This document shows positions 42,401 through 48,400 of a stretch of DNA of 64,000 nt, piece by piece. Within the stretch, counting starts at the first letter, position 1. The number at the start of each line of letters is the position of its first letter. Made by a program: the position numbers. The stretch is from Salinispira sp. (GTDB taxonomy: Bacteria; Spirochaetota; Spirochaetia; DSM-27196; Salinispiraceae): contig OZ271918.1 in assembly GCA_965602015.1 (NCBI GenBank), positions 2,752,001-2,816,000 on the forward strand. Reading direction: 5' to 3'.

Positions 42401-45400
42401 TAACGGGGTCCGGGGCCTGGAAAAGATGGTGCTTGCCGTCCTCCCCCAACTCCACCCGGGCGTAGTGTCCGGTCACGACCCGGTCGTAGTGCTCATCGAC
42501 CGAATCAAAGAATGCTCCGAATTTTATCCGCTGATTACAGAAAATATCCGGGCTGGGTGTCCGGCCGCGTTCGAGTTCGGCCAGGGCGTAGGACACGACC
42601 TTGTCGTAGTATTCGAGCTGCAGAGGCAGGATCCGCAGTTCAACACCGGCCTGCTGACAGACCGCCCGGGCATAGGACAGATCTTCCTCCCAGGGGCATT
42701 CGCCCAGGAAGCTGACGTCGTCTTCTAGCCAGATTTTGAGATAGTATGCCGTTACCTGATGGTTCCCGGAGCGCAGCACCTGATGGAGAGCCACCGAGCT
42801 GTCTACACCGCCGGACAGAAGTACCGCGATTTTCATAGGGAAGTATTTATGACAGAAAGACTTATATTGTTCAAGGTCCGGATGCGCCGCTACCCCTGAG
42901 GTTTCCGACGATGACAAAATCGTTTGATGCGGCGCCGGCGTGACAGGTAATGCATCCCATGAGGCTGCCCTCGGCAATGACCTCGCCGTCCTGGCTGTAC
43001 ACTGCCCAGAACCAGTCGCCGTTTTCCGGATCATAACCAGGCACCTTTGCCATGACCGTGAGGTTTCCCGGCCGCTCGTCTATATCGTAATTATCCTTGA
43101 CGATGATGGTTCCCGCAGGAGCCCGGCCGTCGCCGACGGGAATTGAGGACAGAAGCGCGTCATTCACAAAAATTCGGTGGAAAGCCCCGTGGGGGCTTTG
43201 GCCCAGGCGGAGCCCGTCGTGCTCCGGCCAATAATCATAGCGCCGGAAATCGGTCTCCTGGGTCATCCGCTCCCACAACCGGGCGGCGCTGATTTCCGAG
43301 GCGCTCAGGGGCGGCAGTTCCGGCTCCTGGTATTCGGCGCAGCCGGCCGCAAGGAGGAGCGCCGCCGCTATAACAGCAACCAGCGCCCTGGCTCGCGCTT
43401 TTTTATTTGCATGCGGCGTTTTTCGCCGAATATGCATTGTGTTCATTATTCTTCTCCCTGCCGGATCTCCGGCGACCGGGCAAATGTAATGGTGAAATGG
43501 GTTCCCCTGCCTTCTTCGGTCCACACGCTGATGCGGCCGCCCAGGGCGGCGACTCCGTCCTGCACCGCGTCGAGGCCGACGCCCCGGCCCGAAAGATCAT
43601 CGGCGGTTTCCCGGGTAGAGAATCCGCTGCTGAACAGCAGGCGGGTCAGCTGGGCGTTATCCGGATTATCACCCTCGGCAATCAAGCCGGCCTTAACGGC
43701 TCGCCGTCGCACTGCAGAGAAATCAATTCCTCCGCCGTCATCGGCGACGATAATCTTGTAGCTGCCGTCGGCCTTTCCGTTGAAGAGGAACTCCAGGGTT
43801 CCGTGTTCGCTCTTGCCGGCGCTTATCCTTTCGAAACGTTCCTCGATACCGTGATCCACCGCATTGCGGACCAGGTGAATCAGCAGGGGCCTGAGCTGCC
43901 GAAACGCCGGAAAATCCCTGAGGTTGCTCCTAAAAGAGGTCTTGATTACCTTTTCCCGCTCGTCCGCCAGCTCGGCGACCATCCGGTCCACCGCCCGGCG
44001 AAACTCAGCCAGGTTGCCACCTCCGGGAGACGAAGCCGGGCTCCCGGCGCCGGTCTGTCCGCCTGCCCGGGAAAAATCCATAAAACGGGACTGAATGTCT
44101 TCAATGCCCCGGATATCGGTCTTCAGGCGTTCAAGTTCCCGCGGGAAGGTCTTCTCTCCATCCCCGCCGCCGGTAAGCGCGGGCAGCGAGTCCTCCAGGG
44201 CGTGAATGCTGTCTCCGATGGCCGCAAAATTCAGATAACGCGCCGTGCCCTTGAGGCTGTGAAGGTCCCGGGAAAGGGAGTTCATATCCGGTTTGCCCCC
44301 ATCGGCGAGCTGCTCCAGCCGTCCGATCAGGTCCTTGGCATCCTCGCTGAACTCGGCAAAGGAACGCGGACCAATGCGCAGCACCGCCGCGATCTGCTCG
44401 AGCTCGGCGTCGCTTCGCTTGCGCTCCCGTTCGAGTTCTTCCTGGACTTCGACGATTCCCGTCCGGTCGGTAAAAATAACCATAACGTTCTCCACCGATT
44501 CCCCGTCCATAATGCGGTAGAACGCCGCGTCGATGACTATCCTCTTTTCTCCGCCCTGATGGTCGGGAACCATGAGCGCCATGTCCTGCAGCGGATTGAT
44601 AGACATTATCATGTCCATTTCAGTGCTCAGGCTCTCAAAAATGACATCGATGAATTCCCGCAATTCCTGACGGGCCTGGGAGTCATCGGATTTATCGGGA
44701 TATACGAACTCATCGAGAAAACGGCCGGCCACTTCTTCGGTACCAAAAAGCCGGGTTATGTATGCCGAATACTGGGAGCTGATTTTCCGGTCCGGCCCGA
44801 TGAGCAGGAGGCCTTCACCGATGTTATCAAGATATTTCTGGTTTTCCTGGTTACGGGCATCGATTACCTGGTTCTCCAGCTCCAGACGGTCCCGGTCCTT
44901 GAGACCGGAAATCATGGTATTGATCTGACCGGCCAGCAGTCCGAACTCGTCCTGGGTGCGGATATCTGCGGCGACGTCCAAATTCCCCTGCCCCACTGTC
45001 TGAACCACGGCGCCGATGCTTCGCACCGGAGAAATTACCACCCGGCGCATAAGACCAAAGAGCACCATGGCAATGACCGCGCCGGTTCCCAGAAAAAACA
45101 GTATGAGGATGTTCCGTCCCCGGTCGATCTGGGTGAACACCCGGTCCAGACTGATGCTGTAATACGCTACCCCTCGCACCAGGTGATCATCGCCGTGGCA
45201 TACCCGACAGTCGGCGGTATTAATAATGGGAAAAAAGAACTCGAGGCGCCGGTCTTCGATGCTCTCCACAACCTGTGGGGTAGAGCTGTTGACCGAACGC
45301 TGGAATGCGGCCTGGCTGACCGGCACGTCCTCCTGCCTGGGCGTTTCATCGAACATCATGAAGTTCTGAAACTCATTCACGAAATCAAGGGTTTCGAAAT

Positions 45401-48400
45401 CGCTGAAGGCGACGCTGCCGTCCCTTCGGTAAATCTGCAGCTGATCGACCCCGGGCACCTGCTGCAGATCCTCAATTGTGGATACCGCAAGTGGAGCCTC
45501 GCCGTCCAGCATGATATTGCGGATGACCGCATTGAGAATTTCGTTGGTGATCCGCACGTCCCGCTGGCTGACGTCCAGCAATGCGGTCCGCTGGTTGGCC
45601 ACCGAAATGACAATGGAAAGACTGACGGAAAGCAGCAAGACAGCGACGATTCCCGCAAGGATTTTTAATTGGATCGATACCCTGTTCATAAACCGGCCTA
45701 CGCGATGTCACGCAGGGACACGTTAACCGAAAACTTGCCAATGTCGCTTTCGAAGGGGATAACGATGACCGGGATTCCTTCTGGCCAGTGGATTTTGTAT
45801 TCCTTGCCGGTGACCACCCCCGGGAGGGATATTTCGATGCGAAATTCCGTGAGACCCTGTTTGGCGTTGCCGGCTATGATATTGATCATTTCGCCCACGC
45901 CGTCTATCACTTCATTGCTCAATGCCCGGTACTGCCGCTGCTCCATTTTGGATACCGCTTCGATTGAGGTTTCCCGGCTGAAACTGAGAACTACCGCCCC
46001 CTTTGTTTCACCGGCGAGTCCGATAATGCCCGAAACTTCCAGGAGATTGCTGTCATCGGTCTTGAGGAATGGCGCCCCGGGAACCACCGGTACCCCGAGA
46101 AACTCGGTGAACAGATTATGCGTGGCTTGAATAAACGGGTTGATGTATTTGGCTTTCAAAGGCAAATCCTTTCTCTTCTCTGCCCGGGACTGGTGCCGGA
46201 GCAGGCTGGCCGGCGGGGACTAGTGAACGTAGTCCTTGATTTTCTCCCACAGGGTGTTGCCCCGCACGGGTTTTACAACGTAGTTGGTGACGCCGGCCTT
46301 GATGGCCTCCATTACATTGTACTTCGCTGATTCGGATGTGATCATGATGATAGGCGTCTTGGCGTACTTGTCGGACGACCGCAGATGCTTGACGAAGCTC
46401 AGCCCGTCGAGCTTGGGCATGTTCCAGTCCACCAGGAAGAGGTCGAAGGTCTTGTCCTCCGCCAGCAGCAGGGCGCTCTTTCCATCCGGCGCCTCGGTGA
46501 TATCGTCCTCGCTGATGTGCTGCTCCAGGAGGGTGTTTTTATGAATGCGGCGCATGACGCCAGAATCGTCGACGATGAGGATTTTCATTGTTGTCTCCCG
46601 CTTAAGCTTAGCCATTTATCGTCTGGGCGTATAGGTAAATTAGCGGTATTCATGAGAATCAATGGCTATTGACCAAAAAAAGGCGCTCCCTCAAAGGGAG
46701 CGCCTCATTAGGGCAAGCGTCGAATTACTCGAGTCCGACGATAAGTTGAACGTCCAGAGAATCAAACACAAAGAGGTTGGATCCGTTAAGCTGAAGATCT
46801 GCCCGAACACCTTCTCCTAAATCGAAGGTCAGGCCAAAGCTGTGCTGAAAATCAAATGCCCAAAAATGATCCACTTCCCTGGTGGTATTACCGCCGCCAA
46901 CGGTGGTCGTGGGAGTCGTACCCTGACTGACATCGTTGATGTCGAAGGTTTCGACGCTGGAAGCCGCATTGGTATCGTTGCTGACTACCTCACGAGTATA
47001 GCTCATGCTCGCATCGGCGCCCATGATGACTCCGAAAAACCAGCCTTCGGGTTCCACAACTGCGGCCATGGGGATGTTCGCAGCAATTGTCGTACTGACA
47101 GTGGAATCATCCGTAGCGACTTCGGTAAAAGTCGTAGTCTGGTAAGAGACGATGTTGTCATATGCCCCGTCGCCGGTAGTATCTGAAACAGATTTGATGG
47201 CGTTCTCGGTGAGGGTCAGGTTTGTCTCGGGAGTCACATCGAGAAAGAATCCAAGAGACGGCTCAATTCCCACAGTGAGGAATGATGCAGGGTTATAGTA
47301 GAAGCTGTGGCTGGCTCCCACGTTGAAATTCATATCGAGATTGCCGCGATAGGTGAGAGTCTGATCCACACTGGTGCCGCCGGCAACAAAGGTTCCTGCC
47401 GCTCGTCCACCCGCATAGTCATTTACCACTGTCACGTCGTCAATGACAAAATTACGGGAATGCATTGTGAAGCTCAAACCACCGCCGACTTTGAAATCGT
47501 TCATTTCGTGCTCTCCGAAGAGGGCAGGAAGGGTGAGAATGTAGTTGGGACTGATGTTGATTTCAGTCGTAACATCCTTCGTGGAGTCGGTTGAAAGGGC
47601 AAGGCCCGCTGTTGCAATTTCCGGCAGGGTTGTCAACGTCTCTTCGGTAGATGTCGAATTATTTAGCCTGTCGTAGGTGAGGTTAAAGGTTATGAGATGG
47701 GCTAAATCACCGGTTGTCAAAAACACCGGAACACCAAGGGTAATTACCGTCGCGGTACCGCCGGCGTCCCGTTCCTTGGTCTCCTGAACATAATCGGTTT
47801 GCTGTGACGGTGTATCAACCGCCGGGGCGGCGGCGCCGTTGTAATTCTGGGTGAATGTTTCATCGAAGTTGTTGGCTGCCGCAGCATTGTCATCGATAAA
47901 AATATCCAGGTAGGCACCTACGTTCAATCCGCCCAGACCAATGAGGAACTGTGCCTCGGTGCTGAAGGTATTGAATGCCTGTGCCTGAAAGTTGACCGCT
48001 GTATTGCTACCGACGTACTGACCGCCGCCGTCGTTTGCGAGGGTGTCGGTATCAGAACTGATATCTACCGCAGTAATGGTTGTGGCATTCATGGTGCCGA
48101 CTACGGACATGGGCTGCTCGCCGGGCAAATAGAGCCCGATAAACGGCAGATTGCCCCCGGGGCCGAAAGTGTTTGCCCGTAGATCGAGGTTTTCAAGACC
48201 GCCGAAGAAGTACTTCTTCTCCAGACCGCTGAATGACCCTCCATACAGGGTTTCATCAACATTGAGAGAGTAATCCAACTCGTTGCTGAAAATATCGAAC
48301 GTCAACCTTTCCAGCAGCGAACCAGTCACGTACTGGGCTGATAGCGATGCGCCTAAGAGGGCAAAAATCGCCAGAAATAATACAAGTCGCTTCATGTGTA

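Follow-up and report, generated by a model that had tools for sequence, protein, structure and literature searches.

The window, that is, the whole 64,000-nucleotide stretch of the Salinispira sp. genome analysed here, carries on its minus strand an operon transcribed in the order cheY, cheX, kinase and P460-like lipoprotein gene. The cheY gene (46220..46588, with its ATG at 46588) encodes a single-domain response regulator of 122 aa (PF00072), and its relatives share the same start site. It is followed by a TTG-initiated gene for a CheX phosphatase of 155 aa (45698..46165; PF13690, E 7.9e-23), a 747-aa sensor kinase of class III type (43446..45689) and a 191-aa P460-fold c-haem lipoprotein (42871..43446; PF16694, E 9e-11), whose ATG at 43446 overlaps the kinase stop codon in an arrangement of translational coupling. 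A 217-aa frame opening with GTG was rejected for the last gene because its relatives begin at the stop-overlapping ATG. The first-pass annotation had rightly placed the CheX and CheY genes beside the kinase but described them as following it; both precede it in transcription, and it is the P460-like gene that comes after. Probably cheY is the first gene of the operon, the upstream gene ending at a terminator-like hairpin (46680..46706, minus strand) that matches the consensus only, with a 12-pair stem and a T run. The region upstream of cheY showed no sigma-70-like site. A sigma-28-like site lies 57 nt upstream, agreeing at 10 of 12 positions with the sigma-28 consensus; it was discarded as the cheY promoter, as none of 14 relatives reaches 10 and 895 such sites occur genome-wide.

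Two hydrophobic segments of the 747-aa product, at about residues 2-33 and 191-222, enclose a periplasmic domain (residues 30-190; 45120..45602), as had been proposed. Its predicted haem c attachment motif, C161-R-V-C164-H165 (45195..45209), is formed by the only two Cys residues of the protein. Whereas 32 homologues had been reported at E<=1e-43, a search with residues 1-270 returned 31 at E<=2.6e-43, and the remaining sequence is a weak match; 25 of them, including the query, rather than 26, have the HAMP+Hpt+HATPase_c output, while the five Guanylate_cyc outputs and the single HD output were borne out. The claimed invariance of CxxCH stands for the 31 strong homologues, and the motif is also kept in 20/20 aligned members and in all 141 representatives that span it. 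A further invariant residue, absent from the first-pass annotation, is Met60 (45510..45512), present in 150/150 representatives. This predicted distal haem ligand aligns with chain residue 26 of 3b42, which is Met60 there when the offset is set by His144.

In profile comparisons with the PDB, the sensor matched 3b47 (GSU0582; E 4.9e-7) and 3b42 (GSU0935; E 2.8e-4). The AlphaFold2 model of the domain (mean pLDDT 82.9) has a strand at residues 148-156, a helix at 159-165 and a strand at 171-180, so that the CxxCH helix falls between strands 3 and 4, and its best Foldseek match was again 3b42 (E 4.3e-6). With VIA-align, the best matches were Cache-type sensor domains (4ywz: Z 10.9, rmsd 2.9, 132 residues aligned), 3b47 ranking only 41st (Z 8.0, rmsd 2.4, 72 aligned), a position probably due to domain swapping in the crystals, as for 3b42. 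Because the crystals are domain-swapped dimers, the low TM-scores to 3b42, formerly listed as a weakness, are no argument against homology. The statement that no Pfam model recognises the sensor is correct at cut-off for this sequence, which scores below the thresholds of both PF21563 (E 0.046) and PF11845, but not for its relatives: at E<=1, PF21563 matches 17/20 aligned members (best 8.9e-7) and PF11845 10/20 (best 1.3e-4), and more distant relatives exceed the PF21563 cut-off. Judged by predicted fold, homology and motif, the domain is a divergent member of the sCache_heme family (DUF3365/Tll0287, PF11845; PF21563), which includes GSU0935, GSU0582 and a P. azotoformans Cache_heme-HAMP receptor (PMC12889525; 10.64898/2026.05.25.727664). 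It shares with them a periplasmic Cache fold between two transmembrane helices, a HAMP domain below, modular outputs, a CxxCH on a short helix between the last strands and, as in GSU0935, a His/Met60 pair. It differs in lying under both Pfam cut-offs, in an extra helix at residues 98-108, in its CheW-less CheA-type kinase output and in its pairing with a P460-fold lipoprotein. The novelty formerly implied for the sensor half is thus not sustained.

The cytoplasmic part comprises HAMP (213-264), Hpt (445-524; 44118..44357; PF01627, E 3.1e-11) with His477, and a CheA-type HATPase_c domain (602-737; 43479..43886; PF02518) that stops about 15 residues short of the C terminus. His477, N609, H613 and the G-box glycines are kept in 25/25 kinase homologues and D651 in 24/25, and all ten PDB matches of the ATPase domain are CheA (best E 2.3e-28). 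Pfam detected no CheW domain in the protein, HisKA gave no match, and PF02895 occurs in this genome only in two canonical CheAs. Between HAMP and Hpt lies a PAS-like region not previously noted (approximately residues 283-412; 44454..44843), which has no Pfam match of its own and was recognised via the orthologue in genome G092, whose aligned region matches PAS_9 (E 2e-7).

Class III histidine kinases, reportedly defined by Wuichet and Zhulin in 2010 and by Adebali et al. in 2017, combine their own sensor with Hpt and a CheA-type ATPase, lack CheW and dimerisation domains, and have a single-domain response regulator and CheX alongside. The present kinase, with its N-terminal sensor followed by Hpt and CheA-type ATPase and with neither CheW nor dimerisation domain, fits this type, and the implied novelty of the kinase half is not supported either; CheX and a single-domain regulator are co-encoded both here and at 6/6 intact kinase loci of the order. 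It departs from the class as otherwise described in its flagellated, apparently pilT-less host, its c-haem input and its accessory haem lipoprotein. CheA itself (class II) has core P1, P3, P4 and P5 domains and no sensor of its own (PMC10782961), while this kinase has a sensor and lacks P3 and P5. For class III kinases, to which PMC6501615 and PMC6963811 refer at second hand, pilT is a reported genome correlate, and secondary accounts link them to type IV pili.

The cheY product has D7, D8, D54, T84, Y103 and K106. Its best NCBIfam match is CheY (PRK10610, 96.7 bits, under the cut-off of 189), its best PDB matches (3h1g, 4hns and 2chy) are all CheY, and among solved receivers it matches chemotaxis CheYs at E values of about 1e-23 to 1e-26 and PleD-type receivers at about 1e-14. 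CheX contains E92-x-x-N95, presumably its active site. FliM is encoded in the genome, which is 99.67% complete and in which neither pilT (TIGR01420) nor a T2SSE ATPase above cut-off (PF00437) was found. Elsewhere the genome encodes another operon, cheA-cheW-cheX-cheY, and each of two additional CheW-less kinases is accompanied by a CheX and a CheY.

The P460-like protein has a lipoprotein signal with an invariant lipobox residue, Cys36, a feature missing from the first-pass annotation. Alignment with the cytochrome P460 of Nitrosomonas AL212 places His86 at the cap site, Lys117 at the cross-link position and Thr130 at the site of the carboxylate, followed by Met132 and C165-x-x-C168-H169. Lys117, the putative cross-link residue, coincides with the motif Lys of AL212 and is kept in 18/18 aligned proteins; its presence sets the protein apart from cytochromes c'-beta, which lack this Lys. 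Thr130 corresponds to AL212 position 131, where Thr, Val or Ser occurs in 81/81 metagenome rows, and the distal proton-accepting carboxylate of active cytochrome P460 is absent. The neighbour called "cytochrome P460" belongs to the PF16694 family, but the name overstates its likely chemistry. His86 aligns with AL212 Phe76 in the sequence comparison alone, and in the model it falls in a loop of low confidence; His occupies this site in 18/18 aligned proteins and 81/81 metagenome rows. The structural model is modest (mean pLDDT 67.5, under 50 at residues 70-85 in the His86 loop), with 7ead, 9hrk and 6hiu as best Foldseek matches. Solved members of the P460/c'-beta superfamily (PF16694), among them NsP460 (6amg), McP460 (6hiu) and TtCP-beta (7ead), all have Phe or Arg as capping residue (PMC11928373). 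The lipoprotein resembles them in fold, C-terminal CxxCH and cross-link Lys, and inactive NsP460 in lacking the distal carboxylate; it differs in its predicted lipid anchor, its His cap, its co-encoded receptor and a host without detectable haem-copper or bd oxidase.

The link between sensor and P460-like gene, formerly said to rest on gene order, proved stronger. The two genes adjoin at 18/19 loci of the order, 22/25 of the phylum and 17/21 of the closest metagenome loci (the other four lie near contig ends), although such co-occurrence counts span kin and one operon and so overstate independence. An adjacent P460-like gene is missing from one order locus, three phylum loci and 4/4 more distant loci. 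The pairing holds with kinase or cyclase output and across gene orders, including upstream and convergent ones, and the lipoprotein is likely to be the functional partner of the sensor. Most relatives of the sensor have a cyclase output, and in a quick tree of 64 rows the 15 kinase sensors formed one clade (support 98) nested in a larger group, supported at 99, that also holds cyclase sensors, suggesting a swap from cyclase to kinase; a single clade of all cyclases was nevertheless not rejected by an AU test (p 0.10), which used 44 of the rows and omitted 20 to save time. A single-protein scan of genome contigs yielded only two loci. Among 59 more distant metagenome loci of the His-capped type, 18 of them with adequate flanks, none has the sensor, and the His cap therefore did not arise for this partnership. 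A predicted complex of two sensor domains and two P460-like proteins with haem scored 0.12 against a mark of 0.32, which bears on contact neither way.

The only System II cytochrome c synthase of the genome is a 1331-aa CcsB/ResB-CcsA fusion that carries a 2Fe-2S domain at its C terminus (G000:2749507-2753502, G000 being this genome); the 5' part of its gene occupies positions 1..1502 of the window on the minus strand, about 42 kb from the operon. Neither CcmE nor haem-copper (COX1) or bd oxidases were found in the genome. Of its 34 ORFs with CxxCH, a filter for hydrophobic leaders retained three. One, of 82 aa, runs antisense to an ORF of 481 aa, which leaves the other two, the kinase and the P460-like protein, as the only convincing exported CxxCH proteins. 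CcsA is present in 19/20 sensor genomes of the order vs 4/79 others, and ccsA or resB lies within the locus at 3/6 kinase loci of the order, at L063 and L069, and at 7/25 phylum loci. G092 lacks CcsA and P460, and its kinase orthologue has lost both the motif His and the Hpt His; G096 lacks CcsA and the operon block. This co-occurrence and decay place haem attachment on firmer ground than before, and the genomic evidence makes covalent, CcsBA-made haem c on both sensor and lipoprotein highly probable.

In the mechanism proposed here, CcsBA would attach haem c to the sCache_heme domain through C161 and C164, with His165 as proximal ligand, and likewise to the lipoprotein. By homology to GSU0935 and GSU0582, Met60 would bind the reduced haem and come off when the haem is oxidised or when NO or CO takes its place. 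The change would then pass, by the standard mechanism, through the second transmembrane helix, HAMP and the PAS-like region to autophosphorylation of His477. Phosphate very likely moves straight from the kinase to the co-encoded CheY and is removed by CheX, a reading in keeping with the earlier proposal that a kinase with a c-haem sensor passes phosphate to a CheY without intermediary; the proposed bypass of chemoreceptor arrays applies to this kinase only, as the genome has chemoreceptors and two canonical CheAs. Phospho-CheY would act at the flagellar switch, and we lean slightly towards a role there in parallel to receptor arrays and without methylation adaptation. The lipoprotein would most plausibly serve, without catalysis, as a redox relay or co-receptor: its His-capped haem would react with an oxidant or an N-oxide and would set or reset the haem of the sensor; direct electron exchange between the two haems is a tentative suggestion. 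Swimming would thereby be altered when the periplasm turns oxidising or NO-rich. Taken whole, the reading of a two-haem redox/NO sensing module acting on the flagellar switch has about an even prospect of being right.

Other explanations must be weighed against it. The sensor might bind NO or CO directly, while the lipoprotein, expressed alongside, scavenges or buffers NO, hydroxylamine or peroxide and never touches the sensor. Signalling sCache_heme proteins do bind NO alone (PMC12889525), GSU0935 and the P. azotoformans receptor do so without a P460 partner (PMC8396549, PMC12889525), P460/c'-beta proteins bind NO (PMC11928373), stand-alone His-capped relatives adjoin CRP/FNR regulators and other cytochromes, and an Hcp-family gene is present in the genome. 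A generic scavenger, however, would not need a pairing that outlasts changes of output and gene order, and the distal His could block gas binding, so that this account appears rather unlikely. Very unlikely is a role of the lipoprotein outside signalling as a store, chaperone or repair reductant for the sensor haem: ccs genes often come after the P460-like gene and translational coupling with the kinase is tight, yet the lipoprotein carries a CxxCH of its own and so counts among the clients of CcsBA, its relatives also occur where there is no sensor, and some sensors lack the lipoprotein.

The output and the haem itself can also be questioned. With the same haem input, CheY may have an enzyme or regulator as target, the operon being a stand-alone class III two-component system. 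The separate cheA-cheW-cheX-cheY operon and the two other CheW-less kinase/CheX/CheY sets mean that its target may not be the motor, the cyclase output of most relatives points to general regulation, the upstream sigma-28-like site is not conserved, and class III kinases are linked at second hand to pili rather than flagella. We nevertheless consider a non-flagellar target improbable, given a CheY far nearer to chemotaxis CheYs than to PleD-type receivers among solved domains, the co-encoded CheX and the failure to find pilus ATPases in the genome. That the CxxCH holds zinc or a disulfide, the domain binding a small molecule like an ordinary Cache, agrees with scores under both Pfam cut-offs but seems scarcely credible beside the homology to two c-haem sensors of solved structure, in which both axial ligands align, the CcsA co-occurrence and the loss of the motif His where CcsA is absent.

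The sensor and kinase parts are known, and their wiring together is what is new. P460, CheA and class III are absent from the main text of the sCache_heme preprint (PMC12889525), and P460 from its 10 supplementary files. The most specific version is doubtful as a whole: in it, a His-capped P460-fold lipoprotein is a co-receptor in direct electron exchange with a sCache_heme domain of His/Met type, the cell retains its entire cytochrome c maturation system solely for these two proteins, and the kinase drives the flagellar switch without arrays or methylation. The operon offers a minimal test system, made up of two haem proteins and a single synthase, kinase, CheY and phosphatase, in which results would not be confused by further c-type cytochromes, none being evident in the genome. 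It is also a setting in which to ask what Geobacter-type c-haem sensors respond to physiologically. That a kinase of class III type occurs in a genome where no pilT was found also means that the proposed pilus role cannot be general. If the relay reading is true, it would give a physiological role to non-catalytic P460 proteins, the role of the "halfway" members without a catalytic base having been left open in a review (PMC11928373), and would assign a co-receptor role to His-capped P460-fold proteins, a large uncharacterised subtype; it would also explain the setting and resetting of c-haem sensors and link class III kinases to flagella. For the bacterium itself, which lacks cytochrome respiration, the operon probably provides a means of sensing oxidants or nitric oxide and of responding by swimming.

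Four minus-strand genes form an operon in the order cheY (46588-46220), cheX (46165-45698), a kinase gene (45689-43446) and a P460-family gene (43446-42871) whose own ATG overlaps the kinase stop. A terminator-like hairpin on the same strand (46706-46680) closes the gene upstream of cheY, and mnmA is the downstream neighbour. The surroundings also hold an exported 567-aa protein lacking Pfam and NCBIfam matches (46725-48428, minus strand), which is missing along with the operon at the syntenic site of the congener G096, a 948-aa ORF with no Pfam match (35618-38464, minus strand), and an MnmA C-terminal low-complexity Gly/Ser/Thr/Gln tail of ~90 residues with short repeats in its coding DNA (41421-41700, minus strand).

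Two hydrophobic segments occur in the kinase, and its sole cysteines, those of the motif C161-R-V-C-H165, lie between them. HAMP, Hpt and HATPase_c domains follow the membrane part in that order, and the C-terminus lies ~15 residues past the ATPase. The PAS-like region between HAMP and Hpt has no Pfam match in the kinase itself, and the aligned region of an orthologue matches PAS_9. All 10 PDB matches of the cytoplasmic part are CheA, and 25 of 25 kinase homologues retain H477, N609, H613 and the G-box glycines. The order of the domains matches that of class III histidine kinases as the class is reportedly defined. Such kinases are described second-hand (PMC6501615, PMC6963811) as devoid of a dimerisation domain and tied to a pilus marker. 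The core-domain rule of PMC10782961 places the protein outside CheA. The nearest named record, at 82% identity, is from an uncultured Salinispira sp., with other named matches from Spirochaeta or Spirochaetales, and kinase-type sensors form a single clade among cyclase-type sensors in the tree.

The region preceding the HAMP domain is a divergent haem sensor. Alone, it matches PF21563 at E 0.046, while among 20 aligned members 17 match PF21563 and 10 match PF11845 at E<=1. A profile built from 20 sequences retrieved the Geobacter c-haem sensors GSU0582 (3b47, E 4.9e-7) and GSU0935 (3b42, E 2.8e-4) as the only PDB matches with E<0.2. The invariant Met60 aligns with 3b42 chain residue 26, in a piece that is weak alone and concordant with the 3b47 piece, and the CxxCH histidine aligns with chain residue 110. 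According to PMC8396549, the CxxCH histidine of GSU0935 is His144 and its distal ligand is Met60; because chain residue 110 is His144, chain residue 26 corresponds to this distal Met60. Met60 is kept in all 150 best representatives and CxxCH in all 141 that span the motif, the remaining nine being fragments. The predicted structure (pLDDT 82.9) shows a Cache fold in which the last two strands flank the CxxCH helix; Foldseek ranked 3b42 and 3b47 highest for it, and VIA-align ranked Cache-type sensors highest. By the sCache_heme definition in PMC12889525, the domain is a divergent member of this family. There, the family takes in GSU0582 and GSU0935, NO binding is reported for a signalling member, and the supplement lists PF11845 matches in 149 of 919 Spirochaetota genomes. 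NO-enhanced phosphorylation is reported for an sCache_heme-type receptor in 10.64898/2026.05.25.727664. The sensor profile extends to 1395 clusters, grading into chemoreceptors, GGDEF proteins, class I kinases, cyclases and SpoIIE phosphatases, and many of these relatives exceed the PF21563 cut-off (60 of 150 scanned). Several representatives (P0117, P0139, P0153, P0170, P0210 and P0214) carry three CxxCH motifs and repeats of the haem sensor domain, with cyclase or SpoIIE output, and in P0176 the sensor is joined with hemerythrin.

The P460-like product is a lipoprotein with an invariant Cys36. When aligned with Nitrosomonas AL212 P460, Lys117 occupies the cross-link lysine position, Thr130 the catalytic-base position and His86 the position of the capping Phe76. 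According to PMC11928373, the cap is Phe or Arg in every solved P460-superfamily member and activity depends on a carboxylate. His, Lys and Met are conserved in all 81 metagenome rows, which were gathered with a search pattern that included Lys and not His. These residues suggest a haem protein that lacks catalytic activity, and its distal His may serve as a sixth ligand.

Gene order couples this lipoprotein to the sensor. In the order, 20 of the 21 other sensor loci were fetched, of which 19 were intact (6 kinases, 13 cyclases); the identical four-gene order occurs in 6/6 kinase loci, and the P460-like gene lies directly downstream of the sensor gene in 18 of the 19, one of them interrupted by a contig end. 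Of 251 genomes sampled evenly across the phylum, 28 had the sensor: all 25 close loci encode a cyclase, with a P460-like gene adjacent, upstream or downstream, in 22, and four more distant sensor loci had no adjacent P460-like gene. Among the 21 closest metagenome P460 loci, 14 have an adjacent sensor, three an adjacent kinase end and four lie near contig ends; a sensor was seen in none of 59 more distant loci, only 18 of which had adequate flanks. The partnership is therefore a trait of the spirochaete clade, and the type of protein extends further. A tandem pair of P460-like genes lies upstream of the sensor cyclase at L160:4762-5874, and another at L161:2078-3147. Stand-alone His-capped P460-type proteins are widespread (loci L082-L140), near CRP/FNR regulators, SoxA/TsdA-type or cbb3-type cytochromes and rubredoxin-glutamate-synthase-like genes, with Atlas clusters in Spirochaetota, Thermodesulfobacteriota and Myxococcota.

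Haem attachment to the sensor is supported by genomic context. One CcsB-CcsA fusion represents cytochrome c maturation in this genome, where a search for CcmE found none. A hydrophobic segment precedes the motif in only three of its 34 CxxCH ORFs, namely those of the kinase and the P460-like protein and one of 82 aa that runs antisense to a longer ORF. A survey of 99 genomes in the order detected the sensor in 20, PF16694 in 20 and CcsA in 23, with CcsA in 19 of 20 sensor genomes vs 4 of 79 others; these are tallies rather than a test, kin not being independent. The sole sensor genome without CcsA, G092 (93% complete, 7% contaminated), has an orthologous kinase adjoining mnmA with its sensor spread over two frames and the motif His and Hpt His replaced; no P460, CheX or CcsA was found there. 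This decayed gene (L046:6557-8702, minus strand) retains most of the ATPase. In the complete genome G096, an MFS gene abuts mnmA, a 5.6-kb block is missing and CcsA was likewise not found. The fusion (1-1502, minus strand; L003:11508-15503) is 1331 aa long, carries a 2Fe-2S domain at its C-terminus and an apparent flavin reductase region, and may itself provide the reductant needed to attach haem. Its gene is divergent from an msrB-like gene, and comparably long frames occur in two other genomes, G023 and G098. An Hcp-family gene is present in the genome studied here, and neither haem-copper nor bd oxidase was found in any of the family's eight genomes.

The genome encodes two canonical CheAs, 31 chemoreceptor matches above cut-off, and two further CheW-less kinases with CheX and CheY. 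In one, an ammonium transporter is joined to PAS, Hpt and CheA-type ATPase domains (L052:1489-4230, minus strand; G000:2303466-2306210 in whole-genome coordinates), and the gene follows a cheY and a cheX of its own. The other, a 552-aa Hpt-ATPase kinase with two N-terminal hydrophobic segments and a small periplasmic part, precedes cheX and cheY (L056:1483-3138, minus strand; G000:1367736-1369394). Among solved structures, the operon's CheY is nearest to the chemotaxis CheYs 3h1g, 4hns and 2chy, which we take to be the motor-binding proteins of Helicobacter, Vibrio and Salmonella. Since FliM is present, pilT was not found and no T2SSE-family ATPase scored above cut-off, this likeness makes a flagellar target, on balance, the likeliest for CheY.

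Domain layout, sensor family, conserved catalytic and ligand residues, gene coupling and CcsA co-occurrence were all computed here. By homology, Met60 would bind or release haem with redox state or NO, the signal would pass through HAMP, phosphate would move from His477 to Asp54, and CheX would reset the signal. More speculatively, the lipoprotein might exchange electrons with the sensor, and the pathway might control the motor. A direct lipoprotein-sensor link is favoured because no other c-type partner or oxidase for the lipoprotein to serve is evident in this genome; against it, the P460 subtype also occurs where there is no sensor, the lipoprotein is missing beside some sensors, and known sCache_heme receptors bind NO unaided.

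A search outside most subscription journals returned no description of the module in literature on P460 with spirochaetes or with sensors or on receptor-independent CheY kinases of spirochaetes, nor in the sCache_heme preprint (PMC12889525). This is a real, conserved system whose parts are known and whose combination is new, its most original features being the His-capped P460 subtype and the apparently dedicated maturation system.
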